This document shows positions 144-59,737 of a DNA stretch of 64,000 nt, piece by piece (within the stretch, counting starts at the first letter, position 1; each line of letters opens with the position of its first letter). Source of the DNA: a virus; IMG/VR virus record IMGVR_UViG_3300009502_001749, positions 1 through 64,000 of that record. One strand, given 5' to 3'. The translations under genes were made by a program, and so were the position numbers. Under the pieces are notes generated by a model. That model was not told where the DNA came from. It searched no databases and saw only the letters and a program-made list of their open reading frames with translations.

Positions 144-512
144 ATGATTAGTATTTGTGAAGCATTAAGTGAAGATGAACGTAAGAAATATGAAGATCAT
201 ATACAAGGACTAAGAACCGGTAAAACATATCAACATATTTCTGATAGATTTTATAGTGGTCGTAGTAAAAATCCAGAAATTGATAGATCATTAATTGATC
301 ATGCTAAAGATAGGATAAGAGAAGCAAAAACTAATTTAGGTGCTGCAGAAGTAAGAAGCAATCTCAATGATAGATTTTCAATTTGGAATAAACTTAAAGA
401 TAATTATGCACAAAATATGAAGGATCAAGATTCAAAATATTCTAAATTATCAGCTCAGAATGCTTCAAATAAAATGGCTAATTTTAAACAAAATAAATAT
501 AATAAACCTTAA
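144..512 (+). CDS. Hypothetical protein with MISICEALSE leader (leader-family member)
   Basis: AGGAG at 132-136 precedes ATG 144; the ORF-track start at 78 overlaps the upstream gene. Confidence 0.6.
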   Translation: MISICEALSEDERKKYEDHIQGLRTGKTYQHISDRFYSGRSKNPEIDRSLIDHAKDRIREAKTNLGAAEVRSNLNDRFSIWNKLKDNYAQNMKDQDSKYSKLSAQNASNKMANFKQNKYNKP

Positions 513-532
513 ATATAAACTTCATCTTTTAC

Positions 533-540
533 ATAGAAAT
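533..540 (+). promoter_or_regulatory. Putative phage promoter motif ATAGAAAT
   Basis: Same motif in six intergenic regions, oriented towards the downstream gene. Confidence 0.4.
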
Positions 541-617
541 ATTATATTTATAAAAATGATCAACTGGAGGTTTTATGCCTTAGCTTTTTAAAATTAATTT
601 TTTGGAGGTAGACAAAA

Positions 618-1103
618 GTGATTATTAAAACACCTAATTGTTTCTTTCTTGTTTCAGGTAGTTCAGATGGTTTTTCTTTATTAAATGCTTTCGATGGTGC
701 TTTATTATCATCTGGAGTTGGAGACACAAATTTAGTTAGAATGAGTAGTATTCTTCCTCCAAGATGTAAAGAGATAGAAAAAGTAAAATTACCTTATGGT
801 GCTTTAATACCAGTTGCTTATGCGTCAATGACTAGTGATGTTAATGGTAATGTTATTTCTTCTGCAGTCGCAATAGGTATTCCAGAAGATTCAGAATTAG
901 CTGGTTTGATTATGGAATATTCTGCAAAAGATAGTAAAGAGATAGTTGAAGGACAAGTAAGAAAAATGGTAGAAGAAGGAATGAAAGTTAGAAATAGAAA
1001 AATTAAAGAAATAAAATCAATAGCAGCAACACATTATATAGCATCTAATTTTGGTGCTACATTTGCAGGTGTTGTACTTTGGGATGATGAGGTGATATTA
1101 TGA
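618..1103 (+). CDS. pdaD: Pyruvoyl-dependent arginine decarboxylase
   Basis: LNAFDGALLSSGVGDTNLVRMSSILPP with the Ser-Ser self-cleavage site; LPYGALIPVAY; GLIMEY; typical length. Confidence 0.85.
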   Translation: MIIKTPNCFFLVSGSSDGFSLLNAFDGALLSSGVGDTNLVRMSSILPPRCKEIEKVKLPYGALIPVAYASMTSDVNGNVISSAVAIGIPEDSELAGLIMEYSAKDSKEIVEGQVRKMVEEGMKVRNRKIKEIKSIAATHYIASNFGATFAGVVLWDDEVIL

Positions 1104-1333
1104 TTAGTATGAGTTATTTATTTGAAGAAGATCCAAATTGGATACAAGATGCTAAACCAAAGAAAGGTTTACTTCATCAGAAACTTGGAGTACCTCAAGA
1201 TGAAAAAATTCCACAACAGAAATTACAAAGTATAAAAGATAGATTACATAATAAAGCTGAGAAAGGTAGTTTAGCACCATCAGAACTTAAATTATCAAGA
1301 GAAGTTAATTTTGCAATAAATGCACAAGGTTAG
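1100..1333 (+). CDS. Small basic protein with MISMSYLFE leader
   Basis: Leader followed by NWIQDA..KKGLLHQKLGVPQDEKIP, a small-protein motif typical of large phages. Confidence 0.65.
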   Translation: MISMSYLFEEDPNWIQDAKPKKGLLHQKLGVPQDEKIPQQKLQSIKDRLHNKAEKGSLAPSELKLSREVNFAINAQG

Positions 1334-1361
1334 TAAAAATAAAAATGGAGGCGTTGTAGAA

Positions 1362-1946
1362 ATGGAAGAACAGAAAAAAGTAGTAGAAAATAAACCAGTA
1401 GATTTTATTTCTAGACAACAGAGACGTCAGCAAGAAAGAGAAGATGAAAAATATAATAAAATGATGAAGAAACAATTAGCAGCAATGGCTACAAAAGGTG
1501 ATTTGATGATGTTAGTTGAAGCCTTTAATAAATTAAGAGATCGTTTATTTCAGATGGATATAATAAATTCAGCATTAGAAAAGATTATAATTAATAAAGG
1601 TTTAGCAACAAGAGATGAAATTATGGTAGCTGTTAAATGTGAAGCAGACAGAGCAATGAAAATGAAAGAAGTAAATGATGAAAAAGAAAATTATGAAAAG
1701 AGACTTGAGACTTGTTTGGAGTTTGATATTGATCCAAATTTTACTAGTGTTCCTTTACAGATTTTTCAGGATACTAATTTAACAGTTGATCAGAAAAGAG
1801 ATCTTGCCGTTAAATATAATTTAGAAACAGTTTTAGAAAAATTACCAAAAGAAGAAAGTAAAGAAGTAATTGAACAAAAAGAAAAGATTGTTAAATTGTT
1901 AGATGAAATTAAACCAAAGGAAGAAAAAGAAAAATGTTTGATTTAG
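1362..1946 (+). CDS. Hypothetical coiled-coil protein
   Basis: GGAGG before ATG 1362; charged helical sequence. Confidence 0.6.
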   Translation: MEEQKKVVENKPVDFISRQQRRQQEREDEKYNKMMKKQLAAMATKGDLMMLVEAFNKLRDRLFQMDIINSALEKIIINKGLATRDEIMVAVKCEADRAMKMKEVNDEKENYEKRLETCLEFDIDPNFTSVPLQIFQDTNLTVDQKRDLAVKYNLETVLEKLPKEESKEVIEQKEKIVKLLDEIKPKEEKEKCLI

Positions 1947-4900
1947 TATTAGGTCATAGTAGTTTTTTGGGTCATACCGGGTATGCTCATCATTCAAGAG
2001 AATTTTTCACTGAATTAAATAAACGTATTCCAGTTCGTATTAGAAATTTTGCATATGTTGATAATCTTGATTATTTAACACAAATTCAAAAAGATATGGT
2101 GATTTATCAGAAGTGGAATAATGCACCATATGAAGTTGGAACACCTTTTGAAAGAAATCCAAAAGATAAGGTTATTAATATAATTCTTAATGAAACTAAT
2201 CATTATTATTATTATGATAAATATGATGGTCCAAAGATTGCATATAATGTTTGGGAGAGCACTCTACAACCAGAACAATTTTTTAAGAAGTTGTTAGAGT
2301 TTGATCAGCTCTGGGTTCCCACCACTTGGCAACGTGATTGTTCGATTGGACAAGGTTTTCCAGCGGCGCGAGTTAAAATTATTCCAGAAGGAATTGATGG
2401 AAATAAATTTTGTCCTGGTGAGAGTGATATAGATTTAACTCAACTCAGAAAGGAAGAATTCAATTTCGTTCTATTTGGTCGCTGGGATAATCGTAAATCA
2501 ACAACTGAAATTATTAGAGCTTTTTTAAATGAATTTAAAGTAGAAGAACCAGTTAATTTATATCTTCATATTGATAATCCTTGGGGAGAAAGAATAGATG
2601 GATTTAAAACAACTCAGGAACGTATGGTTCATTATGGTTTTGATCCAAAACATAAAAGACTTATACTTCTTCATGGACTTGAAAATGCAGATAAAGATGA
2701 TTTATATATTAATTATTTAAGAAATGCTAATTGTTTTGTAAGTTGTGCAAAAGCGGAAGGTTGGAATATTCCATTGATTCAAGGAATTTCTGTTGGTACT
2801 CCAACAATATCCTCAAATTATGGAGCTCAATTAGATTTTGCCGGTGAAGCATCTCATCTTGTAAACATAAAAAAATATGTAAAACCTTATAAAGTTTTTA
2901 TGCAAGATGATAATACACCAGGATTAGTTGCTCAACCTGACTATGAACATTTACAATTTGTAATGAGAGATATTTATAATAATTATAATCAGTATAAACA
3001 AAAAGCTTTAGAAGATTCTATAATCATTAGAGAGAAATTTAGTTGGGAGAAAGCAGCTGATAAAGCTATGGTAGCACTTGAAGAACTTTATCAAACTTGT
3101 TATCCACCAAGAAAGAGACTTAATATTGGTTGTGGTAATGATATTAAAGATGGATATATTAATATTGATGAATTTGTTGAAAATAATAGTATTACAAAAA
3201 TGAGTATGCTTAATTTAGATTTTGCCGGTAATTTTATTGATGAAATATATACATCACATTCTCTCGAACATTTTGGTAAAGATGGAGTAAAACAAGTTCT
3301 TAAAGAATGTTATAGGGTATTAAAAACAGATGGTATTCTTAAAATTGAAGTTCCTAATCTTGAAAAAGTTTTACAGAATTGGTTAGATACAAAAGAAGAA
3401 GATAGATGGGGATTTCCTTTAGATACTATTTTTGGTATTCAAGATAATCCAGGTGAGTTTCATAAAACAGGATTTACGAAACAACATTTAATAGATACTG
3501 TTAAACAGGCTGGATTTGATATTGATGAAATTAATGATGTATATAGTCATGCACAAGATTGTATTGAATTAAAAGCTCATAAAATTAATATTAGAGATAA
3601 TAGTGTTATTATAGTTGATTGTTATCCTGATACTGATGAAAAACAAGATCTTTTAGTTAAACAAATTATTTATCTTAAACAGTTTGGTATGCCGCTTTTA
3701 TTAACTACCCATTATTCAGATATACCGAGAGAAATTATTGACTTAGTTGATTATATTGTTTATGATAGAAAAAACATTTTAAGTGATGATAGTATTGATT
3801 TTTTCTTTGTTATGAAAGATTTTATTAAAATTAAAAGTAAAGTATCAAAGAAATATCATTCAGTTGCAGTTCACACAAATCTTAAAAATGCTTTAAAGTT
3901 TTGTAAAGATAAATTTAGATATGCACATTTTATAGAATATGATACAAGTGTTGATTTTTCAAAACATTTGCAGATAGCTGAAAAATCTTTATTTGATGTT
4001 AAAGCTTGTATGTATTCTTATGATGAAGAACAAAAAGGAATCAGACAAATTTCAAATGATAATTCTATTATTGGATTAATAACAAATCTTATGTCATTTG
4101 ATATTAAGTGGTTTGATGATAATCTTGCCGATGTAAATTCATGGGAAGAATATAAAAATATTACTTTAGAATCATCAAAGAAACTCAATAAATATACAGA
4201 TTTAATTTATGAAAATTGGATGTATGATTATTTTAAATCCAATAATTTACTTAAAAATATTGGTGTAATTGATAATGAAACAAAAAATAAAATAATCAAA
4301 GAAAGAAGTAAAATAGTATCAGGAAAATTTGAAGATGATAATCTTATTATTTTATTATCAGAAACAAATCAACATGATGTTCTTATATTTGCAATAAACG
4401 ATTATAAAGATCATAAAGTTGATTATAGATTTACATGTAATGGAAAAGTTACAGAAGGACAAGTACCAACAAATGGATTTGCATATTATGTTGCAAATAA
4501 AATAGACAAAGTTCAAGTTATGCTTGATACTAAAGTAACAGATTTAGAATTTGATTATACAAAATTATACAGTTTAACAACTAGATTTAAATTTGTTGAT
4601 GATAGAATTAAATGTTTTGAATGGACAGAAAATGATGATAATGGATTTACAGTTAAAAAAGATGTTCCAGTTAGTGTAAAATATCATTTTGTTGATGGAG
4701 CATTTGTTGAAATATTAGGAAATAATGAAGAATCAAAAGATTATACTGTTGAATTTATAGATCAAAATGATAATAATAAAATAATATTTTCAACAAATAT
4801 ATCACCTAATAATTGGACAAGACCTAATTTAAAATATTTTATAAACTGGAAAACCCTTGTAAAACATAAAAATAAAATAATATTTGAACATTTATATAAC

Positions 4901-5755
4901 GCAAAAGATAAAAGAATATTAATAAATATAGATAGCAAAGCTCTGGGTGACACTATTGCTTGGATGCCTTATCTTGATGAATTTAGAAAGAAACATGAAT
5001 GTAAAGTTATTGCAACAACATTTTGGAATACACTTTTTAAAGATACTTATCCAGAAATTGAATTTTTTGAACCTGGACAATCTTTTAAAGATTTATATGC
5101 ACAATATATTGTTGGTGTATTTGATGGTGATTATAATCATAATAAAATTCACTGGAGATCTGGTCCATTACAAAAAGTTGCTTCTGATATTCTTGGTTTA
5201 GATTATAAAGAAGTTATTCCAAAAATTTCAGTTGTTAAAAAAGAAAGAGAAATTAAAGAAAAGTATGTTGCTATATCACAACATAGTACTTTTCAATGTA
5301 AATTTTGGATACACGCTAAAGGATGGCAATTCATAATTGATTATTTGAATAGTATAGGATATAAAGTTGTAGTTGTATCTTTACAAAAACCATTAGATAT
5401 TATTAATGTTGTTGATTATACAGGAAGATCAATTCCAGACACTATTAATATTATTAAAAATTCAGAGTTTTTTATAGGAGTTAGCTCTGGTTTATCTTGG
5501 TTAGCTTGGGCATTAAACATTCCAACAATTTTAATTTCTGGTTATAGTTCTGAATGGGCTGAAATGAATGAAACGGAAAAAGCTATTAGAGTTATAAATA
5601 AAAATGTATGTAATAGTTGTTGGCAAGATATAAGTTTGCCAATAGATCGTGGTAATTTTAATTGGTGTCCTAGAAATAAAGATATGGAATGCACAAAAGA
5701 AATAACTTCACAGATGGTAATTGAAGCAATAGAAAAAATAAAGGATAAGAAATGA
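1934..5755 (+). CDS. Multidomain glycosyltransferase: GT4-like + class I SAM methyltransferase + Aah/TibC-type O-heptosyltransferase (GT9-like)
   Basis: HTGYAHHSRE..YNVWEST..AEGWNIP (GT4); LNIGCG..SHSLEH..LKIEVPN (MTase); SKALGDTIAW, FIGVSSGLSWLAWAL, VCNSCW..WCP..MECTKEIT (autotransporter heptosyltransferase with Cys cluster). Confidence 0.8.
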   Translation: MFDLVLGHSSFLGHTGYAHHSREFFTELNKRIPVRIRNFAYVDNLDYLTQIQKDMVIYQKWNNAPYEVGTPFERNPKDKVINIILNETNHYYYYDKYDGPKIAYNVWESTLQPEQFFKKLLEFDQLWVPTTWQRDCSIGQGFPAARVKIIPEGIDGNKFCPGESDIDLTQLRKEEFNFVLFGRWDNRKSTTEIIRAFLNEFKVEEPVNLYLHIDNPWGERIDGFKTTQERMVHYGFDPKHKRLILLHGLENADKDDLYINYLRNANCFVSCAKAEGWNIPLIQGISVGTPTISSNYGAQLDFAGEASHLVNIKKYVKPYKVFMQDDNTPGLVAQPDYEHLQFVMRDIYNNYNQYKQKALEDSIIIREKFSWEKAADKAMVALEELYQTCYPPRKRLNIGCGNDIKDGYINIDEFVENNSITKMSMLNLDFAGNFIDEIYTSHSLEHFGKDGVKQVLKECYRVLKTDGILKIEVPNLEKVLQNWLDTKEEDRWGFPLDTIFGIQDNPGEFHKTGFTKQHLIDTVKQAGFDIDEINDVYSHAQDCIELKAHKINIRDNSVIIVDCYPDTDEKQDLLVKQIIYLKQFGMPLLLTTHYSDIPREIIDLVDYIVYDRKNILSDDSIDFFFVMKDFIKIKSKVSKKYHSVAVHTNLKNALKFCKDKFRYAHFIEYDTSVDFSKHLQIAEKSLFDVKACMYSYDEEQKGIRQISNDNSIIGLITNLMSFDIKWFDDNLADVNSWEEYKNITLESSKKLNKYTDLIYENWMYDYFKSNNLLKNIGVIDNETKNKIIKERSKIVSGKFEDDNLIILLSETNQHDVLIFAINDYKDHKVDYRFTCNGKVTEGQVPTNGFAYYVANKIDKVQVMLDTKVTDLEFDYTKLYSLTTRFKFVDDRIKCFEWTENDDNGFTVKKDVPVSVKYHFVDGAFVEILGNNEESKDYTVEFIDQNDNNKIIFSTNISPNNWTRPNLKYFINWKTLVKHKNKIIFEHLYNAKDKRILINIDSKALGDTIAWMPYLDEFRKKHECKVIATTFWNTLFKDTYPEIEFFEPGQSFKDLYAQYIVGVFDGDYNHNKIHWRSGPLQKVASDILGLDYKEVIPKISVVKKEREIKEKYVAISQHSTFQCKFWIHAKGWQFIIDYLNSIGYKVVVVSLQKPLDIINVVDYTGRSIPDTINIIKNSEFFIGVSSGLSWLAWALNIPTILISGYSSEWAEMNETEKAIRVINKNVCNSCWQDISLPIDRGNFNWCPRNKDMECTKEITSQMVIEAIEKIKDKK

Positions 5756-8546: not shown

Positions 8547-9488
8547 ATGAATTTACCACCTTATGGAGATGATAATAAACGTGTATTAGCTCATTTTGGA
8601 GTTCTTAGGGTTTCTCCTCAAGATGTTCCAAGTATGACTGTGAAAGTTTCACCTGGAGGGTTCTGGTACTACACTAGTACTGGACCAGTATATACTGAAT
8701 TTGCTGGTGGTAATTCACCAACGATAAGTGCTCCAGGTACTAATGCAAAATGGGTAATGGTTGTTTTAAATTCTTCTTGTCAAATTGTTTTAATTGATGG
8801 TACCATTAGTTCACATCCTCAGATACCAACAATTCCAAGAGGAAGAATAATTCTCGCTGCAGTATATGTACAAACAGGAACAACAAAAATTACAAGCGAT
8901 ATAATTTTTGATGTTAGAACTTTATTTGCTCAATTTCCAACTGATCATAGAGATTTAGCTGGAACATCCGAGGTATCAGCACATCCAATATCTTCTATTA
9001 TTGATCTACAAACAACTTTAGACACATTAGTAACAGAAACAACTTTAGATTCAGAATTAGAATCTAAAGCTGATCAAACTGGTACTAATGAAACTTCTTT
9101 TATTTTAAATAAAGATTTTATTGGTACTCCTGCATCAAATGTTGAAATTTTAGTTGAAAGAGGTAGTGAATCTAATGTTGGTATTAAATGGAATGAAACT
9201 TTAGATCAATGGCAAGTTACTTCTGATGGAACAACTTGGAATACATTTGGTTCAGTTATGACAAGTGGATCTTCTGGAAGTTCCGGAACATCAGGTTCTA
9301 GCGGCACGAGTGGAAGTAGTGGAACATCTGGAAGTAGTGGAACATCTGGAAGTAGTGGAACATCTGGAAGTTCCGGAACAAGTGGTACATCTATGACCGG
9401 AGGAACTTCAGGAACATTTAGTATGACAAGTGGTGGAACAATTATTGTTCTTGATGGATTAGTTACGTCAATTTCAGGACCACCGTAA
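8547..9488 (+). CDS. Putative tail fibre/virion protein with C-terminal SGTSGS repeat; paralogue of 9570
   Basis: MNLPPYGD..KRV, VERG...NVGIKW shared with the next gene; repeat at about 9261-9425. Confidence 0.6.
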   Translation: MNLPPYGDDNKRVLAHFGVLRVSPQDVPSMTVKVSPGGFWYYTSTGPVYTEFAGGNSPTISAPGTNAKWVMVVLNSSCQIVLIDGTISSHPQIPTIPRGRIILAAVYVQTGTTKITSDIIFDVRTLFAQFPTDHRDLAGTSEVSAHPISSIIDLQTTLDTLVTETTLDSELESKADQTGTNETSFILNKDFIGTPASNVEILVERGSESNVGIKWNETLDQWQVTSDGTTWNTFGSVMTSGSSGSSGTSGSSGTSGSSGTSGSSGTSGSSGTSGSSGTSGTSMTGGTSGTFSMTSGGTIIVLDGLVTSISGPP

Positions 9489-9569: not shown

Positions 9570-10463
9570 ATGAATATTCCGCCTTATGGAGATAGTTATA
9601 AAAGAGTAGGAGCTTATTTTTCAAATCTACAAGTTTCAGCAAAATCAACACCAAATATGACAGTTAAAATATCAGCTGGTGGTTATTGGTATTATTCAGC
9701 AACAGGAGCTACATATGTAGAATATGTTGGCGGAAGTTCTCCAACTATTACAGCTCCAACAGGTACTGGTAATGCAAAGTGGGTTATTATAGCAATGGGA
9801 CCAAGTGGAGTTGTTTCCAATATTGATGGTGCAGCTGCTTCAAATCCTGTTTTACCAACGGTTCCTGGAAGAGCAAGAATACCTCTTGCTGCTATTTATA
9901 TTCAAACTGGAACAACAACAATTACAAATGATATGATTTATGATGTTAGACCAATGTTTCCATTGGAAGTAAGAGATCATAGAGATTTAGAAGGATTAAC
10001 ATCAACAGGTTCACATCCAATTTCTGCAATCTCAAATCTTACTGAGACTATTGCTAATCTTGTTACATCTTCAGCATTAACAACACTTCTTGCCGATAAA
10101 GCAGATCAAGATGGAACAAATGATACTACTTTTACTTTAAATAAAGATTATAGTGGTGCTCCTGCTTCAGATTGTTTATTTGAAGTTGAAAGAGGTAGTG
10201 GTGATAATGTTGGTATTAAATGGCATGAAGATATATCAAAGTGGCAATTTACTGATGATGGAACAAATTGGATAAATTTTGGAGATCTTTTTATAAATAC
10301 AGGAACACAAGAATTGAATATGTTAGTATATTCACAGAATGCAGAACCAACTTTGACAGTTGGAAATGTAGCGTTATGGATAGATACTAACAATTCAGAT
10401 AAAGTGTATTTGATTTATAGTAGGGGCTCTGCAGATCAAGTAAAAGTTGAATTAACTCAGTAA
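9570..10463 (+). CDS. Putative tail fibre/virion protein; paralogue of 8547
   Basis: Colinear similarity to 8547 over about 235 aa, different C-terminus. Confidence 0.6.
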   Translation: MNIPPYGDSYKRVGAYFSNLQVSAKSTPNMTVKISAGGYWYYSATGATYVEYVGGSSPTITAPTGTGNAKWVIIAMGPSGVVSNIDGAAASNPVLPTVPGRARIPLAAIYIQTGTTTITNDMIYDVRPMFPLEVRDHRDLEGLTSTGSHPISAISNLTETIANLVTSSALTTLLADKADQDGTNDTTFTLNKDYSGAPASDCLFEVERGSGDNVGIKWHEDISKWQFTDDGTNWINFGDLFINTGTQELNMLVYSQNAEPTLTVGNVALWIDTNNSDKVYLIYSRGSADQVKVELTQ

Positions 10464-14237: not shown

Positions 14238-14759
14238 ATGAGTTTAGATATTAATAAAGTTATTATGGAAGCAACAAATAGTCTTTTGGAAACTACAAAA
14301 CCATCAGATGATAAAGGTGATAAGGCACAGACTGGAGCTGATAAGAATAGTTATCATGTTGGAGATGATAAAGTTCCTGGTGAGCCAACATCTGCAACAA
14401 AAGAAGTAACAGAGAATAAAGATATCGTTACAGAAGGAAAAAAAGTTGGTAAAGTAGATTATGAACCAGGTCCTTATGGTTCAGCTAATGTTGGAAAAGG
14501 TTACAGTGAACATGATTCAGAAATGCCAAAACAACATAGTTATCATGATTCAGATAATCCATCAGCAGTTAGTGAAATTGGTAGAAAAGCTTCAAGAGTA
14601 GTTGGTAATACTGTTCATGGTGCTATTGATGCAGTTAAACAGGAACCAATTGCAACTGGTACAGCAGCAGCTATCGCAGCTGGTCTTGGCGCAGTAGCGT
14701 TGGCAAAGAAACTCAGAAAAGAGAAAAAGAAATCAACACTTGTAAAAGCTAAAGCGTAA
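14238..14759 (+). CDS. Putative head-internal protein with C-terminal Gly/Ala helix
   Basis: N-terminal VIME; AAGLGAVALAKKLR identical to 14792. Confidence 0.55.
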   Translation: MSLDINKVIMEATNSLLETTKPSDDKGDKAQTGADKNSYHVGDDKVPGEPTSATKEVTENKDIVTEGKKVGKVDYEPGPYGSANVGKGYSEHDSEMPKQHSYHDSDNPSAVSEIGRKASRVVGNTVHGAIDAVKQEPIATGTAAAIAAGLGAVALAKKLRKEKKKSTLVKAKA

Positions 14760-14791
14760 AAAAGAAATAAATAATATATGGAGGTTTTAAA

Positions 14792-15073
14792 ATGAATCTT
14801 AGTAAAATTATAGACGAATCGGTAAAAACTGTTATTAATGATGTTAATGTTGATGATGCTGTTGATACTTTGAAAAAAGCTGTTAAAAGTGCTAAAGGAA
14901 AATTTGAAAATAGTGCAACTGATGATGTTGCTAGTAAACTTGGTTATATATCAAAAGGAAAAGCAGCTTTAGGTGCAGGTGGTGCTGGTGCAGCTGGTAT
15001 TGCAGCCGGTCTTGGTGCAGTTGCTTTAGCGAAGAAACTTCGTCAGAAAAAGAAAGCTGCGGCTAAGGCATAA
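14792..15073 (+). CDS. Putative head-internal protein with C-terminal Gly/Ala helix
   Basis: N-terminal IIDE; AAGLGAVALAKKLR. Confidence 0.55.
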   Translation: MNLSKIIDESVKTVINDVNVDDAVDTLKKAVKSAKGKFENSATDDVASKLGYISKGKAALGAGGAGAAGIAAGLGAVALAKKLRQKKKAAAKA

Positions 15074-15096
15074 AAATAAGTTTGAGGAGTCAATTT

Positions 15097-15759
15097 ATGA
15101 AATTAAATATGATTAAATTCATAACAGAAGATAATTCAGGTATATATAAACAAGCAGAAGATGCTGGTAAAAAAGCAAATGAAGAATTAACTTCAGGTAT
15201 ATCTAAAGGAGTTAAAAAAGCTTCTAATGCTGTTGAAGCTAAATTAGGATCTGGTGTTGAATCTGCTATAGATGCTGGTAAATCTCTTGAAAGAAAAGCT
15301 GGAGGTTTTACATTTAGTCTTCTGGGACAAAATAAAGCAACAGAAGATGCAAAACAAGCAGCTGATCTTGGTACTCGAATGGGAAAAGTAGCTGGTAAAA
15401 AATCTGTAAAAGCTTTAGCTGCAAAAGAAGAAGCAGGAAAAGATTTCCTACAGATTCCAAAGAAACCAATTAAAGCTAGTTTATTAGATAAAACTGATAA
15501 AGAGATTATGGCTTCTAAAGCTCGTCAAACAAAAGCTGAAGTCCAAGACGAATTATCAAAATCAGCAGTTCGTCAGAAAGATGCAGAAAGTGGAATAGTT
15601 GATTTTAAAACAAAAGCAATTAATAAAGGTAAATCTCTTTTAAAATCAGTTGAAGATATGCCAACAAATCACAAACTAGCAGCTGCTGTTGCTGCTGGAG
15701 CTTTAGCTGTTGGTGGTAATATGTTATATAATAACAAAAAGAAAAAAGCTTATGCTTAA
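15097..15759 (+). CDS. Lys/Ala-rich putative head-internal protein
   Basis: GAGGAG before ATG 15097; FITE near N-terminus; LAAAVAAGALAVGG..KKKK tail. Confidence 0.55.
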   Translation: MKLNMIKFITEDNSGIYKQAEDAGKKANEELTSGISKGVKKASNAVEAKLGSGVESAIDAGKSLERKAGGFTFSLLGQNKATEDAKQAADLGTRMGKVAGKKSVKALAAKEEAGKDFLQIPKKPIKASLLDKTDKEIMASKARQTKAEVQDELSKSAVRQKDAESGIVDFKTKAINKGKSLLKSVEDMPTNHKLAAAVAAGALAVGGNMLYNNKKKKAYA

Positions 15760-15792
15760 AATAATAAACAAATAACAATGGAGGTTATTAAT

Positions 15793-16092
15793 ATGTTAGA
15801 CAGAATTAATGCACTTATGGAAAGTGAAGATACACAGAAACTTTTGACTGAAAATGAGCAGTTGCTTACTGAAGCAGTAGGAGAAACTGTACAGTTTTCT
15901 AATACGTTGAAGGCATTCGTAATTAAACATCCTGATGAATTTCTTGGCGAAAGCACACAGGAAACATACAAAAATATTAGATTGTTTTCTGAAGTAGCAA
16001 CTTCACAGTTTCTTACCGAAGTTACACATGTTTATGGATCACAGATTCCAGTTCCAGTTCAGGAAGGGGATGCATTAAACGATTATCTGTAA
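15793..16092 (+). CDS. Acidic prohead core/scaffold-like protein
   Basis: Repeated L-x-E sites (LME, LTE, LTE). Confidence 0.4.
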   Translation: MLDRINALMESEDTQKLLTENEQLLTEAVGETVQFSNTLKAFVIKHPDEFLGESTQETYKNIRLFSEVATSQFLTEVTHVYGSQIPVPVQEGDALNDYL

Positions 16093-16104
16093 AAAGAGGG
16101 TGTT

Positions 16105-16356
16105 ATGCCAATTAGAACAATCAGCGAAAATTCAGATTTAGTTTTACCTGCTTTGGCCGCTGGTATAGCAGCTTATGCTGGTCATAAGCTTTACAAAAAA
16201 TATAAACAAAAACAATTATTTAAAAAGTATGGTATTAAAGAAGAGCCGAAAAAAGATGTTAATCCTGATGATGAAGATATTAAAAGAGATATGGCTTATT
16301 ATATTGCTGCAGATTTGCCAACACATCTTGCTTATTCATCACAAGTAAAGAGGTAG
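16105..16356 (+). CDS. Small membrane-anchored protein
   Basis: ISE then LPALAAGIAAYAGHKLYKKYK. Confidence 0.55.
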   Translation: MPIRTISENSDLVLPALAAGIAAYAGHKLYKKYKQKQLFKKYGIKEEPKKDVNPDDEDIKRDMAYYIAADLPTHLAYSSQVKR

Positions 16357-21976: not shown

Positions 21977-22345
21977 ATGTTATCTATTGTTGATTTATTT
22001 AAAGATAAAGTAATTGAAGAGTCTGAATTAGATGGACCTTTGGATGATTATTCATATTTATTACATCATGTTGAAATAGATAATGATGGAGTTGAAAATT
22101 TACATCATTGTTTTGTATATGATCATCTTGGTAATATGTTTACTCAAGATACCATCATCATTAAAGATGGTAAATGTTATGATGAAAATAATAAATTATT
22201 GAAAGATGGAACATATCATACAATTTCAGGTTTAGAACCTGAACAAGAAGTTTGTTGGAGTGATTCACAAGCTGAAGAAAATGGAATTAAACCAAAACGT
22301 ATGGTTGCAGGAATGACATATAAACAGAAAGCTAAGGAGTGGTAA
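21977..22345 (+). CDS. Hypothetical protein with MLSIVDLF leader variant
   Basis: RBS GAGGAG. Confidence 0.55.
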   Translation: MLSIVDLFKDKVIEESELDGPLDDYSYLLHHVEIDNDGVENLHHCFVYDHLGNMFTQDTIIIKDGKCYDENNKLLKDGTYHTISGLEPEQEVCWSDSQAEENGIKPKRMVAGMTYKQKAKEW

Positions 22346-23049
22346 TGATTGTTTATCCAAATACTTGGAGAGAAATAGGAAAAGTTCCTACAATTGAAGA
22401 AATAGAGGATTATATTTTTGAAGTTATTAATAATCTTAATTGTACAAATTTAGCTTTATCTGGTGGAATTGATAGTTCTTATATGTTATGGTGTATGTTA
22501 AAAATTTTTGGAAAAAGAAATGTGAAATGTTATACTATATCTTTAAATCATGATCATCCAGATTATATTTATTCAAAACAAATAGTTAAAGATTTAGGAG
22601 TAATAAATTGGTCTTGTTATTTTCCTTCAAATAATGAAGTTGAAGAATTATTAAAAGATAAAAATGGAGATTCAATAGTTGAAAAATTCTTTGTTTGGTT
22701 AAATAAAGAAAAAGCAGAAGAGATAATTTGTTGTGATGGAATTGATGAGTTTATGGGTGGATATTATGATCATCTTCATAATCCAACTCATGAAACATAT
22801 TATGATTTTATGACTAGATTACAAAAAGAACAATTAGAACCTCTTCATAAAAATTCTGCCGATATCAAAGTATTTTTACCTTATATGAATAAAAAACTTA
22901 TTGAATTATATGATAGAATACCAATGAGTGATAGATTTGATAATAACAACAGAAAAAAGATAATGATAGAATTAGCGAAAGGTAAAATTCCAGAGGAAAT
23001 AATTAATAGAAGAAAATATGGTTTTGTTGATGCTATGAGAATAAAATAG
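22345..23049 (+). CDS. Asparagine-synthetase-like ATP pyrophosphatase (synthetase domain only)
   Basis: LALSGGIDSS PP-loop, DGIDEFMGGY, IPEEIINRRKYGF; no glutaminase domain. Confidence 0.8.
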   Translation: MIVYPNTWREIGKVPTIEEIEDYIFEVINNLNCTNLALSGGIDSSYMLWCMLKIFGKRNVKCYTISLNHDHPDYIYSKQIVKDLGVINWSCYFPSNNEVEELLKDKNGDSIVEKFFVWLNKEKAEEIICCDGIDEFMGGYYDHLHNPTHETYYDFMTRLQKEQLEPLHKNSADIKVFLPYMNKKLIELYDRIPMSDRFDNNNRKKIMIELAKGKIPEEIINRRKYGFVDAMRIK

Positions 23050-23067
23050 ATTTTTAGAGGAGTTATT

Positions 23068-23265: not shown

Positions 23266-23276
23266 AGGAGTTTATT

Positions 23277-23625: not shown

Positions 23626-23627
23626 TT

Positions 23628-24071: not shown

Positions 24072-24085
24072 ATAGGAGTTAAATT

Positions 24086-36600: not shown

Positions 36601-36610
36601 TGGAGATAAA

Positions 36611-37241: not shown

Positions 37242-37251
37242 GGAAATTATT

Positions 37252-37383
37252 ATGAGAGATTTAGGTTTTCCACCTGATAAGTGTGATAAATGTGGTAATA
37301 CTTCTTTTAATTTATCTTTTTCTGAATCTGAAGTTATTTTTATTTGTGGTAAATGTGGAAATGTTATAAGAGGAGAGAAATGA
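37252..37383 (+). CDS. 43-aa zinc-ribbon protein
   Basis: CDKCG...ICGKCG; RBS GAGG. Confidence 0.5.
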   Translation: MRDLGFPPDKCDKCGNTSFNLSFSESEVIFICGKCGNVIRGEK

Positions 37384-37752
37384 ATTTTGAAAAATTTTTA
37401 GATTTTTATGATAAACATCCAGAATATGTTAATCATAATTTTTTTAAATTATCAAGAGAATCTGTTTTGAAATTATTAAAAAATAATTCTCAAGTTATTG
37501 TTTCTCTAGTAAATCCAGCAATATTTACAATTTCCTAATATTTATATAACTTATAAAAGATTAATATTTAAAGAAGAATTTAAAAATCATGATTTTATAA
37601 AAAATATAGATCAAATAATATATTCTTGCAATTTTAAAATAAATAGAGAAATAGATAATAAATTTGAGTGGAATTTTATAACTGAAGAATTTAAATATAA
37701 TAATAAACAAATTCAATATGTTGGATTTGAAAGATATATTGAGGAGAGATAA
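37380..37752 (+). pseudogene. Hypothetical gene split by a +1 frameshift near 37500-37535
   Basis: 0-frame stops at 37538; a second frame is open 37513-37752 with no start of its own. Confidence 0.4.
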
Positions 37753-37755
37753 ATA

Positions 37756-37905
37756 ATGGGATTTGTGCCATTTGGATTAGTTCCAAGAAAACATTTCATT
37801 TCAAATCAAAAAGGTTATGATTTTGTTTTAAATGAAATTAAATATGCTAAACAAAAAAGTTTAATAAGTAAAATTATTAATTTTTTAAGAAGGAAGAATA
37901 AATGA
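37756..37905 (+). CDS. 49-aa hypothetical protein
   Basis: GAGGAG RBS; stop overlaps the next start (ATGA). Confidence 0.4.
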   Translation: MGFVPFGLVPRKHFISNQKGYDFVLNEIKYAKQKSLISKIINFLRRKNK

Positions 37906-38432
37906 AATTATTTTTCGATACAGAGTTTACAGGATTACATAAGAATACAACTTTAATTTCTTTAGGAATAATTTCAGATAATAATAAAACATTTTATGCT
38001 GAATTTACAGATTTTGATGTGAGTCAATGTGATCATTGGATTTTTGATAATGTTGTGAAAAAATTAACTTTATGCGGTAAAACTGGAACATGTTATATTA
38101 ATGATGAAAACAATATACAAATTTGTAATAAAACCTTTACAATTAAAAAAGAACTTGAAAGATGGTTAGAACAATTTGATCAAGTTGAGATGTGGTCTGA
38201 TTGTCTATCATATGATTGGGTTTTATTTAATGATTTATTTGGAACAGCTTTTAATATACCTAAAAATATATATTATATTCCTTTTGATATTTGTACACTT
38301 TTTAAAATTAAGGGTGTTGATCCTGATATTAATCGTGAAGAATTTGCCGGTAGTCATTCTTTAGTTGATAAACATAATGCTTTACATGATGCTAAAATCA
38401 TTAAATTGTGTTATGAAAAATTGATGGAATAG
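37902..38432 (+). CDS. DEDDh 3'-5' exo(ribo)nuclease (Rv2179c-like)
   Basis: FFDTEFTG, SYDWV, HNALHDA. Confidence 0.85.
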   Translation: MKLFFDTEFTGLHKNTTLISLGIISDNNKTFYAEFTDFDVSQCDHWIFDNVVKKLTLCGKTGTCYINDENNIQICNKTFTIKKELERWLEQFDQVEMWSDCLSYDWVLFNDLFGTAFNIPKNIYYIPFDICTLFKIKGVDPDINREEFAGSHSLVDKHNALHDAKIIKLCYEKLME

Positions 38433-38441
38433 GGAGATATG

Positions 38442-39047
38442 ATGTTATCATTAAGTTATCTTTTTGAAGAAGATGAAGATTTTGATAGAGAAGATATGAT
38501 TGATCATTTTAACGAAAGAACACATAACCATATTTTTCTCGTAGAGAAATATTTAGATAAAATTATTAATTTAGAAGATTCAAATTTGGACAATTCTATT
38601 TTAGAAAAAGAAAAAGAAGGACATGATGAAAGTAAATTTTTAGCACCAGAACATGAACCATATTTAAAAATCAATTGGCGTTATCATATGAAAGATAGAG
38701 GAATAGATTATAATCCTGGAAAAAAGATTGAAGATCAAATGCAAGCGGCAACTTTTCATCATGTGAAGAATAATAAACATCATCCCGAATTTTGGGATGA
38801 AAAAAGTACTATAGAAAACGTTAATAATAAAGATCGTGATAAACCACCAGAACAAATTGTGGATGCAACAAAAATGCAGTTAGAGTATATTGCTTGTATG
38901 GTAGCTGATTGGTGTGCTATGTCTGAAGAACGAAATAGTGATCCTTATAAATGGGCAAAAGATAACATCAACGTTAGGTGGCAATTTACTCCAGAGCAAG
39001 AAAATTTTATTTATGATTTATTGGATGAAGTATGGAAAAAGAAATAA
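38442..39047 (+). CDS. HD-like phosphohydrolase (DUF5662-like) with MLSLSYLFE leader
   Basis: HI..V, HDESKF, HHVKNNKHHPEFW, MVADWCAMS. Confidence 0.7.
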   Translation: MLSLSYLFEEDEDFDREDMIDHFNERTHNHIFLVEKYLDKIINLEDSNLDNSILEKEKEGHDESKFLAPEHEPYLKINWRYHMKDRGIDYNPGKKIEDQMQAATFHHVKNNKHHPEFWDEKSTIENVNNKDRDKPPEQIVDATKMQLEYIACMVADWCAMSEERNSDPYKWAKDNINVRWQFTPEQENFIYDLLDEVWKKK

Positions 39048-39064
39048 CTTCATAGAGGGTACTT

Positions 39065-41221
39065 ATGAATATAACAGGACAAAGTCAATACTCGAAAATT
39101 GTAGCGGGTCTGAGAGATCCAAAAACACATCTTGCAGGTCAAGATTTAAATTTAATTTTTGTTTATCCAATCTTATTACCTAACAAATTACCTGATCTGC
39201 GAAATGTAGAAACAATAATAAGAAATTTCATATCAACAACATTTTTAAAAGAGATATTCATACAAAACACAATTAGTATGATTTCTTTAGCAAATCAAAT
39301 TCAACCTCTTTCAGATGAAAGTGGAATGAAAATTGATCCAAACACAACCATAGCACAAGTAATTCAAAATGTTCAAGCAACTGGATCTTCTGCTGGAATG
39401 GTAAGATCAGATACATCATCACCAAATTATAACGTGAGTTCAGGTTATCGTGATCAAATTCAAAGAAAGATTAATGAGAAGACAGCAGTAATTCAAAAAA
39501 TAGTAAAAACAGATCCAGTAATGAGTAAGTTAAATCCTTATATTGAAATGATAACAATGGGAAATCTTATTGATGTTCCTGTTATTGTTGGTACAAAAAC
39601 ATTTCAAGTTGATACTTTATCATTGATTCATATTTTATTAGCTTCTATTGCAATGGATAAAAAATTAAATCATGTTGATAATTTAAATTTTATTTGTGAT
39701 AAACTTAACGGTTTAAATGAAGAACAATATTGGCTCTTATTAAATAATCTTGCCGCTGCAGATAAATCATTCAATATGTGGCAATGGACTAAAGAACTTG
39801 GTGGTAAAATAGGTGATAAAATTCCTAATGTTTCACAATTTGTTGGAAAACAAACTGGAAAAATTGGATCTTTTTTATCTGGAATTAAATCATCAACTCA
39901 AAATTTTGCCGGTAACAAAAATGAATTTGTTGAAAATCCATCCTTTGATATTTTAAGAATTTTAAAAACCAAATTGGATGAAACAAAATTATTTTTTAGA
40001 TTTGTTTTAGATAGAGATTTTTTAAAATCTCAAATTGGACTTAATCCATATGATGCAAATGGTGCTAAAACAAAATTAATTTCAGATCTTTTTCCTGATT
40101 TGCAAAGGGCAAGTTCATCAACAATTCCCGGATTTCAAGATGCATTATCAAGCACAGGATTATCTGCTTTAAGATCAAGTGTAACTTTGGTTGAACCTGA
40201 ACCATTAATGTCTGATAATATTGATTTACTTGATTTGATAAGAAATGAAATAAATGAAAAATTAATAATTGGAATAGCACAATCAAATAAAGATTTATAT
40301 GAAAAAATAGCAGAAGGATTAAATAAAACTAATTTTGATACGACTAAAGGTGATGTTAATATTATTAAAAATTTAAGTTCATTTGATACCGGTGATGAAA
40401 TTCAAAAAGTTGGTTCAAAACTTCAAAATGAACTACCAGTAAATTTTTCAGATAGTCAGTATGAACAATTTTTACAAACATTAGATCAAGCTGGTCAATT
40501 ATCAGTATTAAAAAGTAAGCAGATTGAGAATATAATAACTGGATTTGGTGATGTTAGACAAGATATTATGAAAATTTTAAATGAAATTAGATCTATGATA
40601 AGAAATCAAATTAAAGTTATATTTGATAATTGTACTCGTCAATATATTTCTTCAGGTACAGTTGGAATGTCTCATTTACCAAGGGTAACAGTTAGAACAA
40701 ATGATAAACGAACAATGGCAGATGTTATTCAAGGTATTATACCAACATTAATCACTTATCTTACAGAATATTTTTATTTTTTATTTTTATCATCAGTTAA
40801 ATTATCAATTAAAAAATTTATGATGAAAGCTGAAATATCAATTGATACAGCTTCAAATGATGTAACTGAATGGCCAAATTATACATTAGTTTTGCCGATA
40901 GAAATTGTTTCTGCACTACATGCTGCAATGGTTTCTAAAGGTTGGTATAATTTAACAACTAATACTAAAACAGGTATTAAATTAACTAGTGAAGAATTAG
41001 CAAAAGGTAATGTTATTCATGTGACAGATAATTATGTTAAAGGAATAGTTAAGTTTGTAAGTATGAAATTAGGTGTTCCAAATTTTATAGTTATTGATTC
41101 TAAGAAAGGAGATGTTTATTATAAATTAATGAACCAATCTGGAATTAATAAAACTAAATTATCTACATTAGAAACATTTGTAACTGAGTCTTTAAATAAA
41201 CCAGTAATTAACTATTATTAA
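39065..41221 (+). CDS. Large hypothetical (probably virion) protein
   Basis: 718-aa ORF. Confidence 0.55.
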   Translation: MNITGQSQYSKIVAGLRDPKTHLAGQDLNLIFVYPILLPNKLPDLRNVETIIRNFISTTFLKEIFIQNTISMISLANQIQPLSDESGMKIDPNTTIAQVIQNVQATGSSAGMVRSDTSSPNYNVSSGYRDQIQRKINEKTAVIQKIVKTDPVMSKLNPYIEMITMGNLIDVPVIVGTKTFQVDTLSLIHILLASIAMDKKLNHVDNLNFICDKLNGLNEEQYWLLLNNLAAADKSFNMWQWTKELGGKIGDKIPNVSQFVGKQTGKIGSFLSGIKSSTQNFAGNKNEFVENPSFDILRILKTKLDETKLFFRFVLDRDFLKSQIGLNPYDANGAKTKLISDLFPDLQRASSSTIPGFQDALSSTGLSALRSSVTLVEPEPLMSDNIDLLDLIRNEINEKLIIGIAQSNKDLYEKIAEGLNKTNFDTTKGDVNIIKNLSSFDTGDEIQKVGSKLQNELPVNFSDSQYEQFLQTLDQAGQLSVLKSKQIENIITGFGDVRQDIMKILNEIRSMIRNQIKVIFDNCTRQYISSGTVGMSHLPRVTVRTNDKRTMADVIQGIIPTLITYLTEYFYFLFLSSVKLSIKKFMMKAEISIDTASNDVTEWPNYTLVLPIEIVSALHAAMVSKGWYNLTTNTKTGIKLTSEELAKGNVIHVTDNYVKGIVKFVSMKLGVPNFIVIDSKKGDVYYKLMNQSGINKTKLSTLETFVTESLNKPVINYY

Positions 41222-55279: not shown

Positions 55280-55283
55280 AACA

Positions 55284-57595: not shown

Positions 57596-57605
57596 GGATA
57601 AAAAG

Positions 57606-59459
57606 ATGAGTGTTTTTGCTAATAATTTTTCAAGTTATTTAAATTATACAGCTAATTATACAAATAGATTGACCAATTTAGAATCTATTTTTAAAGAAGC
57701 ATATGAAACAGTTAAAGATCCAAATTTTATTTCAGTTGATTTTTTAGATAAAATTGGTCAGTTTCCGAAATTTCCATATTTTATGAGTATCATGTCAAAA
57801 ACAAATTATTTAAAAATACCAAATATTTATAATGTTTCATTAGATAGACCTGAAAGTTTACTTACAACTATGTTAGAATCAAATATAACTTATTTGAAAT
57901 CAGATTATGATACAGTTCCTAATGAGATTGAAAATATTTTAAGACATGCAAATTTTCAATATACTTATCTAAGTACTGTTAATCAAATTTATGATGTGAA
58001 TAAAACTTGTAAAACAACTAATACAGAAACATCTTATCGTAATTTTTTTACAAATCTTTATTCACAGAAATATTTTAGTGTTGGTTATCCAGTTTCAGCT
58101 GGTTTTGAAAGTAGTTGTTCAATGAACGAACAAGCTTTAATATCATTATTTTCAAATAATTTATCAGCTTCATGTTCATTAACAACTAATTTATTAAAAT
58201 ATATTTTATATTTTAATGCTTTACAACCAGGTGATTTTGGATATTTTCTTGGGATTGAAGCTCAACAAATTAAAAGTGCAAATTTTCAACAAGCTTTTGA
58301 TTATTTTATTATAAATAATAAAGTTGATATGAGTGGAAATATTATAGATTTAATTTCTAAATCACTTTATAATTATAATAATTTATCTACTAGTTTAAAA
58401 AGTGAACTTACAGTTGTTGTTGAACCTCTCATATTAGGTTTATCACAATACTTTACAGATTATTTAAATTCATTTTCAAATTTTGAACCTAATTTTGATA
58501 TCACTTCAAATTTTATTGATTCTCTATATTATCTTTGTTCTGTTGATTTAACGTCTTTGTGTTTTAAAGATGCTACAATTATGGAACAGGCAAATTCAAA
58601 TATTTTGGCTATTGAAGAAGATGCAAAATTTACATTATATATGAATAAAATTGATTCCATGAATATTCAAGATTATCTCTTTCTTGTTTATCTTTATAAG
58701 TTCTGGCCGCTAAAATTTGTGAATGTTTTACAAATGGTTGTTAAAGAATATATTCAAAATATAATAAAAACAGTAGATATTGAAGATAATGCTTTTGATA
58801 TTTCAGAATTTACAGAATTCATGGGAAGACTTTACGCCGATACATATACACCTTTTGATCCATTACATCCTTTTGTAAACTCTAAAATAAATTATACTGC
58901 TCTTGATACTTTTATTCAATCAATATTTACATTAACTCCAGATAATTATCTTTGGAGAATGGAAAACACAAAAGAAGTTTCTAAATTTGCTTGTGAATTA
59001 TATTATATTCAATTGATAGATAATTTTATGGCAAGTGAATATTATATTGATTTTACAAAAGATTTATTGAAAACTATTTTTGAATATTTACGTGATAATG
59101 GACATGTTAGTTATTTATTTAATTGGTATAATAACCATGAAGTTGTTGATATCTTTATTAAAACATTTTTAAGATATCGAATTTTTAGTGAGGATAGTAA
59201 AGGACCAGGAACAAGATTATTTCATTCTATAACGGCAAATTTTAAAGCAATTTTTGATAGAGTTGTAACAAATACAACTGGCGAACCAGTATATGATATA
59301 TCTATTACTTACAAAACACCACAACAATTAAATGATCAATTTAAAAATTTAGTTGAAGGTGCAACAATTAATAGAATGTATCAATTTAATGAAAATTTAT
59401 ATTTATCAAGTTTGACATGTGAAAGTTTTTATGCAATACTTGGAAAATTCTTTTCATAA
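57606..59459 (+). CDS. Hypothetical (probably virion) protein
   Basis: 617-aa ORF. Confidence 0.55.
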   Translation: MSVFANNFSSYLNYTANYTNRLTNLESIFKEAYETVKDPNFISVDFLDKIGQFPKFPYFMSIMSKTNYLKIPNIYNVSLDRPESLLTTMLESNITYLKSDYDTVPNEIENILRHANFQYTYLSTVNQIYDVNKTCKTTNTETSYRNFFTNLYSQKYFSVGYPVSAGFESSCSMNEQALISLFSNNLSASCSLTTNLLKYILYFNALQPGDFGYFLGIEAQQIKSANFQQAFDYFIINNKVDMSGNIIDLISKSLYNYNNLSTSLKSELTVVVEPLILGLSQYFTDYLNSFSNFEPNFDITSNFIDSLYYLCSVDLTSLCFKDATIMEQANSNILAIEEDAKFTLYMNKIDSMNIQDYLFLVYLYKFWPLKFVNVLQMVVKEYIQNIIKTVDIEDNAFDISEFTEFMGRLYADTYTPFDPLHPFVNSKINYTALDTFIQSIFTLTPDNYLWRMENTKEVSKFACELYYIQLIDNFMASEYYIDFTKDLLKTIFEYLRDNGHVSYLFNWYNNHEVVDIFIKTFLRYRIFSEDSKGPGTRLFHSITANFKAIFDRVVTNTTGEPVYDISITYKTPQQLNDQFKNLVEGATINRMYQFNENLYLSSLTCESFYAILGKFFS

Positions 59460-59474
59460 AAATTCTATTTTTAT

Positions 59475-59482
59475 ATAGAAAT
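59475..59482 (+). promoter_or_regulatory. Putative phage promoter motif ATAGAAAT
   Basis: ATATAGAAAT upstream of the helicase unit. Confidence 0.4.
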
Positions 59483-59503
59483 AATTATTTTAAAGAGGTG
59501 TAT

Positions 59504-59737
59504 ATGATTTCAATTACAAATTTATTTGAAGAAATTTCAGCAGTAGATGATAGAATGAATTATGCTAGTGAAAGAATTGCTACATTACAAAGAGCTTTTA
59601 AAGCTGGAAGAATATCTGCAAAAATTTATCAACAACAATTAAAACAATTCCAACAAGTTAAACGTGGAGTTCCATCGAAAGAAATGCCTGAAAGTGAAAT
59701 TAAAGCAGCAGGCACATATTTAAATACTCAACAATAG
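59504..59737 (+). CDS. Small protein with MISITNLFE leader
   Basis: GAGG before ATG 59504. Confidence 0.6.
   Translation: MISITNLFEEISAVDDRMNYASERIATLQRAFKAGRISAKIYQQQLKQFQQVKRGVPSKEMPESEIKAAGTYLNTQQ

Follow-up and report, generated by a model that had tools for sequence, protein, structure and literature searches.

The stretch of DNA analysed here (the window) is the first 64 kb of an IMG/VR viral contig of 87,836 bp with 29% G+C (record IMGVR_UViG_3300009502_001749), for which CheckV gives a completeness of 31%. Nearly all genes in the window are encoded on the + strand, and they include tail-fibre-like, baseplate-like and sheath genes. A total of 24 genes were found to carry a common N-terminal leader of 6-10 residues, a candidate capsid-targeting signal that is the subject of this study. 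These tagged genes, all on the + strand, are listed below with their lengths in amino acids (aa) and, for one, the isoelectric point (pI) of the mature part.

144-512, + strand: leader MISICE, 122 aa, mature pI 9.7
1100-1333, + strand: leader MISMSYLFE, 77 aa
11657-11860, + strand: leader MISISYLFE, 67 aa
13514-13774, + strand: leader MVSIVME, 86 aa
13783-14211, + strand: leader MISIIYE, 142 aa
16359-16580, + strand: added in this study, MVSVIGYLNE, 73 aa
21977-22345, + strand: added in this study, degenerate leader MLSIVDLFKD, then VIEE; the orthologue in relative G001 has MISVSQIFE
23068-23265, + strand: leader MLSIYKLFE, 65 aa
23277-23390, + strand: leader MISVNYLFE(NEY), 37 aa
23628-24071, + strand: leader MLSIYKLFE, 147 aa, DUF5661 domain
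24086-24379, + strand: leader MISVSYLFE, 97 aa
24398-25144, + strand: leader MISVILE, 248 aa, basic, no family or Atlas match
25163-25678, + strand: T4-like leader MKSIREQLFE, 171 aa; replaced by MISITE in the orthologue of the 285-kb relative
25693-25932, + strand: leader MISVCRLFE, 79 aa
26832-27164, + strand: leader MISIMNLFYE, 110 aa
27176-27373, + strand: leader MISIVME, 65 aa
27411-27692, + strand: leader MLSIME, 93 aa
28610-29062, + strand: GTG start, leader (M)ISVSYLFE, 150 aa
29170-29601, + strand: T4-like leader MKTIREQLFE, 143 aa
29618-29797, + strand: leader MISIME, 59 aa
31643-32008, + strand: added in this study, MISIIRPNAF, 121 aa, very acidic, Glu cut site absent from the N-terminal region
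36804-37241, + strand: leader MISVKHLFE, 145 aa
38442-39047, + strand: leader MLSLSYLFE, 201 aa, DUF5662, with an HD-superfamily-like fold and metal-ligand pattern
59504-59737, + strand: leader MISITNLFE, 77 aa

The first-pass annotation of the window had listed 21 of these genes as about 20 unrelated proteins with a common leader, scattered over 59 kb and with Ser3 written in more than one codon family. All 21 N-termini translate as described, each start lying 5-10 nucleotides behind a GGAG/GAGG-type ribosome-binding site, and the three members added here (at 16359, 21977 and 31643) bring the total to 24. The proteins are indeed unrelated, as an all-against-all BLASTP comparison (E <= 1e-4, alignments confined to the first 20 residues being ignored) left the 24 tagged proteins in 24 separate families. 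The span of 59 kb is also correct, but the genes are strongly clustered rather than scattered, with 15 of the 24 packed into positions 21977-29797.

A megablast search with 12 kb of the window against isolated phages gave no match and the sheath protein is at best about 25% identical to those of the jumbo phages AR9, PBS1 and phiR1-37, so a virion proteome from a cultured relative does not exist. Whole sequences of three relatives were retrieved, namely G001 (285,572 bp, 95% complete, sheath identity 76%), G002 (109 kb, sheath identity 56%) and G003 (314,837 bp with terminal repeats, identity of the major capsid protein (MCP) 53%). The fragments G004, G005 and G007 were also used, together with the distant relative G006 (181 kb, MCP identity 30%). 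No close relative was found in the viral collection for the 'IYE'-type MCP.

The leader was found to be tied closely to genuine gene starts. A strict form of the motif, M[ILV]S[ILVM]xx[LI]F(x)E, was counted at starts with a Shine-Dalgarno (SD) sequence and an open reading frame (ORF) of at least 35 aa; it occurs at 12 of the 169 SD-preceded starts in the 87.8-kb contig versus none of 8,552 other ATG, GTG or TTG positions, and at 15 of 677 SD-preceded starts in G001 versus 3 of 27,215 other start codons. The ending [LI]FE begins within the first 15 residues in 16 proteins of the contig and in 28 proteins of the 285-kb relative, where 1.3 and 3.7 respectively are expected from its internal rate. 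Most leaders (22 of 24) end in [LIV]-x-E within 10 residues.

Among 54 leaders from two genomes, Ser3 is encoded by AGT (18), AGC (2), TCA (22), TCT (10) and TCG (2). The other leader residues use ATT/ATA (Ile2), TTA/TTG/CTT (Leu7), TTT/TTC (Phe8) and GAA/GAG (Glu9), and synonymous variation was observed at every conserved leader residue. The use of both AGY and TCN codons for Ser3 means that selection acts on the peptide, as the first-pass annotation had argued, and rules out a purely nucleotide-level element.

The leader recurs in the relatives in altered forms. In G002 it reads MI[SPTA][IV]xxLFE, where residue 3 may have become Pro, Thr or Ala but the hydrophobic pattern and LFE persist; in G005 it reads ML[PS]..LFE, and in G003 a weaker M[IL]S[IV]xx[VIL]LxE is found on about ten genes. 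The leader is also modular with respect to the protein behind it. Orthologues whose mature parts can still be aligned may carry different leader forms, as with MKSIREQLFE in this contig and MISITE in G001, and orthologue identity falls from 67% over the leader to 49% over the 15 residues behind it before rising to 58% over the remainder, a dip which indicates that a variable linker follows the tag.

About 37 tagged genes were found in G001, or about 40 when near-variants such as MMSVMYLFE and MINIGYLFE are included. Thirty-two of them lie inside the + strand late and structural block at 15-100 kb, where the median length is 77 aa for tagged and 269 aa for untagged proteins. The mature cargo is mostly basic, with a median pI of 9.7 versus 6.6, and a pI above 8 was found in 42 of 58 mature parts versus 114 of 306 untagged small proteins (Fisher p 1e-6); the internal proteins (IPs) of T4 are likewise basic (PMC9026906). 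Pfam and PHROGs searches with 20 tagged proteins found only DUF5661 and DUF5662, and the ESM Atlas gave no usable match for the 248-aa cargo encoded at 24398.

The head genes of this phage begin at the end of the window and continue on the same contig just past it, in the order portal, gp68-like core protein, protease and MCP:

63754-64000, + strand: 5' end of the T4-type portal gene, which opens the head module; the remainder lies beyond the window
67287-67715: gp68-like core protein, starting MFLVEVLFE, 142 aa, acidic
67696-68457: gp21-family protease, 253 aa, 3.7 kb beyond the window
from 68492: MCP, starting MYDQAIFENYE

The corresponding order in T4 is 20-67-68-21-22-23. The gp68 protein of T4 is also 142 aa long and its start, MLLIPETHELVLEN (T4 record), resembles the MLLVEVLFEQ of the G001 counterpart. 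The Pfam model Portal_T4 exceeds its cut-off in two relatives, G002 and G003, and Pfam Gp23 is present in some relatives of the MCP; a six-frame search with Pfam Gp23 gave no match, its control being equally silent.

A gp21-type prohead protease, which the first-pass annotation had proposed to look for, is present on the contig at 67696-68457. The best Pfam model is Peptidase_S80, which scores 26.8 bits for the G001 protease (cut-off 23.4) and 21.4 bits, under that cut-off, for the protease of this contig; six-frame searches of the contig and its relatives with Peptidase_S77 and Peptidase_S78 found no match. The G001 orthologue is annotated in PHROGs as a head maturation protease. A profile built from 82 homologues, taken from an exhaustive search with 657 matches, hits the structure of T4 gp21 (PDB 5JBL) with E 9e-20, and the same structure is the only strong Foldseek match (E 1e-10, template-modelling score 0.83 on the target) of an AlphaFold model with a predicted local distance difference test score (pLDDT) of 82. 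Judged by this profile and the predicted fold, homology to gp21 is clear despite the silence of Pfam S77. Two residues of the protease, His85 and Ser151, are invariant, and their aligned counterparts in wild-type gp21 are His85 and Ser140. We take them to be the catalytic pair, and the crystallised chain in 5JBL, where the two gp21 positions read Ala, fits this assignment.

Two further observations were made on the head genes. The portal and the MCP are split in this contig (63754-71417) but are single ORFs in G001 (702 and 535 aa), and an HNH-type ORF at 69763-70659 lies inside the MCP region, which fits introns or homing endonucleases. The G001 portal (92377-94485) has an internal TTLFE/GEY at residues 188-190 which, by analogy with the long N-terminal propeptides shed by giant-phage portals (PMC5694885), could be a maturation site.

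In T4 a capsid-targeting sequence (CTS) is found on IPI, IPII, IPIII and Alt and is removed by gp21 (Mullaney and Black 1996, as reviewed in PMC9026906, PMC3012670 and PMC5694885). The first-pass annotation had described a leader of about 10 residues ending in Glu on T4 internal proteins, and the T4 record agrees, with ipII and ipIII both starting MKTYQEFIAE. The first 10 residues of IPIII are enough for encapsidation, targeting depends on residues 4 and 7 and processing on residues 8 and 10, and an Asp in the tenth position prevents cutting but leaves targeting intact (PMC9026906). Several T4 head proteins also have N-termini of this kind in the T4 record: gp67 (MEGLIE), gp21 (..QLLIE), gp22 (..QLIAE) and gp24 (..ELLRE), beside the ..EFIAE of IPII and IPIII.

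The present leader resembles the T4 signal in being a short N-terminal peptide that is the sole common part of otherwise unrelated, mostly basic small proteins, in ending hydrophobic-x-Glu, and in the company of a gp21-family protease with the same aligned His and Ser in the order portal, small core protein, protease and MCP. The two MK[ST]IREQLFE leaders (25163 and 29170) are identical to the T4 CTS at five of ten residues (M1, K2, T/S3, E6 and E10), and we propose that they are a second form of the same signal that is closer to that of T4. The main consensus MIS[IV]xxLFE (or its short form of only 6-7 residues) has no sequence relationship to the T4 CTS, and where T4 tags a handful of proteins there are 24 tagged genes in 88 kb here and about 37-40 in the 285-kb relative. 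The present phage, known from its sequence alone, is moreover an uncultured jumbo phage of a group with RNA-polymerase beta-like genes.

The end of the leader is also found on the head proteins themselves. Outside the MIS class, an N-terminal [LI]FE occurs in this contig only in the two MK[ST]IREQLFE genes and in three proteins of the head module, namely the gp68-like protein, the protease (..NFIFETTS) and the MCP (MYDQAIFENYE). In the MCP the motif [LI]FENYExF[IL]xE follows a variable start of 2-20 residues and is retained by about 100 homologues with identities as low as 37%. The distant relative G006 has an MCP starting MNENLILEN and at least 11 small proteins starting MK..(K)xLILE[NAS], and it lacks LFE leaders. 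The ratio of N-terminal [LI]FE to xI[LV]E is 58:7 in the LFE lineages and 0:13 in G006, counts that are not phylogenetically independent. The leader ending and the MCP N-terminus thus covary, and the final tripeptide of the leader has the look of a lineage-specific code, used also at the N-termini of the MCP, the gp68-like protein and the protease. A set of 77 metagenome loci around MCP homologues contained mostly core genes within 10 kb, with too few cargo genes to assess covariation.

From these observations we consider it likely that the leader, written M-[IL]-S-[IV]-(x)1-3-E or, when long, M-[IL]-S-[IV]-x-x-L-F-E, acts as a T4-type capsid-targeting propeptide. We infer a pathway in which the tagged proteins would, late in infection, dock by means of the leader onto the core of the assembling prohead, using the recognition site that the components of the head itself (MCP, gp68-like protein and protease) use. 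The gp21-family protease would then cut after the leader Glu (P3 = L/I/V, P1 = E), the mostly basic mature proteins would stay in the head with the DNA, and the next infection would release them together with the DNA. The very acidic product of 31643 is possibly targeted but uncut.

Several points weigh against this interpretation. The 22 MIS-type leaders have only the terminal hydrophobic-x-Glu in common with the T4 CTS, and this is a motif of low information; outside the MIS class its enrichment at late-block N-termini (26 of 71 versus 79 of 320, p 0.05) is not significant. About a quarter of the cargo is acidic, the conserved member at 31643 is without a Glu site, and the leaders of some relatives end in Asp, which blocks processing in T4 (PMC9026906). 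Three tagged genes of G001, one of them encoding a Pfam HD-domain protein, lie outside the late block, adjoining ribonucleotide reductase and RNA-polymerase beta-like genes. The covariation of the leader ending with the MCP N-terminus covers two lineages only. The [LI]FENYE of the MCP resembles IFENQE, which lies inside the propeptide of T4 gp23 (T4 record); IFENQE is not known to be a cleavage site. The LFE common to the MCP and the leaders may consequently reflect docking and not cutting. Finally, the phage is uncultured and the support for the leader reading is all drawn from sequence.

Among the alternatives, the one that survives best accepts prohead targeting by the leader and its subsequent removal, and holds that the cargo is mainly internal structural, scaffold or DNA-charge-neutralising protein, comparable to the internal peptides and the bulk IP role of T4, rather than injected effectors. 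Such a role would suit the very small size (median 77 aa), basic character and lack of a recognisable domain of most tagged proteins, as well as the LFE ending of the gp68-like core protein. It sits poorly with 24 unrelated families that turn over rapidly between relatives, with at least two cargo types that look like enzymes (DUF5662 with its HD-like fold and metal ligands, and the Pfam HD protein of G001), and with the description of the diverse CTS-bearing IPs of T-even phages as anti-restriction proteins (PMC3012670). We regard it as unlikely.

Considerably less probable is that the leader addresses another partner, be it a modifying enzyme acting on ribosomally synthesised and post-translationally modified peptides (RiPPs) or of the radical S-adenosylmethionine (radical-SAM) type, a chaperonin, the phage nucleus or a membrane machinery. 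The similarity between the leader ending and the MCP N-terminus could be read in this way, as the N-terminus of T4 gp23 directs proteins to GroEL (according to a paper cited in PMC10052503), and G001 has RNA-polymerase beta-like genes as in nucleus-forming jumbo phages. However, no radical-SAM gene was found in the tag-dense contigs (G000, G002 and G005) and the sole one in G001 is QueE-like and distant from the tags; tagged proteins reach 277 aa, unlike RiPPs; and the leader is too short, and its end too acidic, for a Sec, Tat or lipoprotein signal. A search of two near-complete relatives with the single phiKZ chimallin sequence gave no match, a weak negative. A partner of this kind would also leave the invariant terminal Glu and the match to gp21-type sites unexplained.

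The conserved stretch begins at the start codon, is A/T-rich and lies in co-oriented, clustered genes, as a nucleic-acid element (a translation-initiation enhancer, repressor site or recombination hotspot) or an N-terminal stability or translation signal might, but this is hardly credible given Ser3 codons split between AGY (20) and TCN (34), synonymous variation at all conserved residues with positions 5-6 free, the drift of residue 3 to Pro, Thr or Ala in G002 under a persisting hydrophobic pattern and LFE, and upstream information content confined to the ribosome site.

The capsid-targeting interpretation has precedents to which the present system can be compared. Its description in the first-pass annotation as an expanded analogue of the T4 system is fair, but the principle itself is already established in T-even phages (PMC3012670, PMC9026906), whose diverse internal proteins have nothing but a CTS in common and are processed by gp21. 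CTS-like basic proteins are encoded in the hyperplastic IP loci of other T-even phages (Repoila et al. 1994, as cited in PMC9026906). As in those loci, the leader is the one constant part of sets of unrelated proteins that vary within a single phage group, a pattern that is read as arms-race cargo; in contrast to them, where few genes are involved and the T4-type leader is kept, the leader here has itself diverged and differs by sub-lineage (residue 3 from Ser to Pro, Thr or Ala in G002; ...LILE in G006). A literature search found no report of a jumbo-phage clade carrying dozens of short-leader cargo genes.

Many head proteins of the giant phages phiKZ, 201phi2-1 and SPN3US are cut after Glu by a protease related to gp21; it is the MEROPS S80 protease gp175/gp245 that removes the propeptides from head and ejection proteins, and conserved N-termini of paralogues were termed 'reminiscent of the T4 CTS' (PMC5694885, PMC10052503). 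The propeptides of SPN3US are mostly 111-254 residues long, with only two of 20-24, the motif is A/S/G-x-E, and nine substrates are known (PMC5694885, PMC10052503). The present phage is likewise a jumbo phage whose protease has Peptidase_S80 as its best Pfam model. Its leaders differ from those propeptides in their length of 6-10 residues and in having L, I or V at P3, and its MCP and portal are T4-like. The cargo-loading peptides of encapsulins usually sit at the C-terminus, make direct contact with the shell protein and remain on the cargo. They offer a parallel, with no homology implied, in that a short terminal peptide addresses unrelated enzymes to the interior of an HK97-fold shell, whereas the present leader is N-terminal and would be cut off.

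The DUF5662 cargo (38442-39047) was the one cargo family examined for whether the leader is an addition to an existing protein. Among the 120 homologues listed, the leader was found in 27 of the 38 closest and in none of the next 82, and it is therefore an add-on confined to this clade. In the AlphaFold model (pLDDT 93) residues 1-10 have a pLDDT of 50 and the rest 85-99, so that the leader is placed outside the fold, and structural matches begin near residue 20. Seven residues (H30, H61, D62, H107, H113, H114 and D156) are invariant in 60 homologues, consistent with the H...HD...H...D metal-ligand pattern of an HD-superfamily hydrolase. The top matches in a VIA-wide structure search were all HD or HD-GYP cyclic-dinucleotide phosphodiesterases, with Z scores of 8.5-6.7 that are middling for a helical protein; a Foldseek search with the model reached an E of only 0.7, which is not significant, and Pfam found DUF5662 alone. 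Provisionally, this cargo is assigned as an HD-superfamily hydrolase on its conserved residues and predicted fold. More distant homologues (P0302, P0305, P0331 and others) have other recurrent N-termini, MTKSAFLMNLLE and M[NS]WYK.A..., with which other phage lineages may tag this cargo family.

If the leader is a capsid-targeting propeptide, the tagged proteins would be prime candidates for first-strike anti-defence factors, as proteins delivered with the DNA act before phage gene expression; IPI* of T4 is a known example of such a co-delivered factor (PMC3012670). A tag that is readable in the sequence would turn dozens of orphan genes per genome into a candidate list, with 24 entries for this contig and about 37-40 for the 285-kb relative. 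The leader ending appears to match the N-termini found on the capsid, core and protease proteins of the phage, which offers a testable rule of cargo recognition, and a natural tag of 6-9 residues could broaden the packaging tools that have so far been built on the T4 CTS (PMC9026906, PMC10229621).

A wider and tentative reading, which we hold to be doubtful, is that the LFE-type ending is a 'house code' of the MCP, the gp68-like protein, the protease and all cargo that co-evolves across T4-like phages, taking the form LFE here, ILE in the distant relative and IAE in T4 gp22 and the IPs. Were this true, the sequence of any uncultured T4-like phage would suffice to list all of its capsid-delivered proteins, and in this jumbo-phage clade the list would comprise about one tenth of all genes. 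It would include HD-type phosphohydrolases, which may arrive ready-made to destroy nucleotide immune signals at injection.

Other N-termini in the window show some regularity of their own. Five adjacent small genes at 14238-16356 start MSLDINKVIME, MNLSKIIDE, MKLNMIKFITE, MLDRINALME and MPIRTISE, and these starts are kept in G001. They may represent a second leader type resembling the MAKINELLRE of T4 gp24; a second class M..(D/S)INK[VI]IxE is not claimed, the hydrophobic-x-Glu outside the MIS class being inseparable from background at p 0.05. A family of small proteins (27411-27692 and 28391-28594 in the window; 48222, 58449, 58663 and 59071 in G001) has varied short N-termini, MLSIME, MKTNE, MKNINE and MINNE, in which Glu stands directly before a conserved xKFGV mature start.

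Several features of G001 were noted outside its late block. Large RNA-polymerase beta-like genes (Rpb2 domains 3 and 6) and weakly beta'-like genes at 177910-184858 adjoin a class II ribonucleotide reductase, a set that resembles phiKZ/AR9-type jumbo phages, yet the head module is T4-like. A tagged polymerase subunit was considered and rejected, as the tagged 52-aa ORF upstream of the beta'-like gene is separate from it, with overlapping stop and start. QueD-, QueC- and QueE-like N-termini at 170928-173644 and 201476-202324, together with one radical-SAM hit, suggest a 7-deazaguanine pathway and hence possibly modified DNA. Five tandem paralogues of about 220 aa each, at 1563-4957, have the common start ML[IV]KIAGRVRGLFAGNYP.

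Upstream of the fibre genes, the window also contains a long ORF at 1934-5755 whose 1273-aa product has matches to glycosyltransferases and methyltransferases. Long fibre-like proteins with the common N-terminus MN[LV]PPYGD(D/N/G)xK[RK] are encoded at 8547-9488 and 9570-10463 in the window and at 30042-39513 and 277175-285571 in G001, where at least eight copies of the family occur. This N-terminus looks like a common attachment module on variable fibres, which would make it a second case of N-terminal modularity in the phage.

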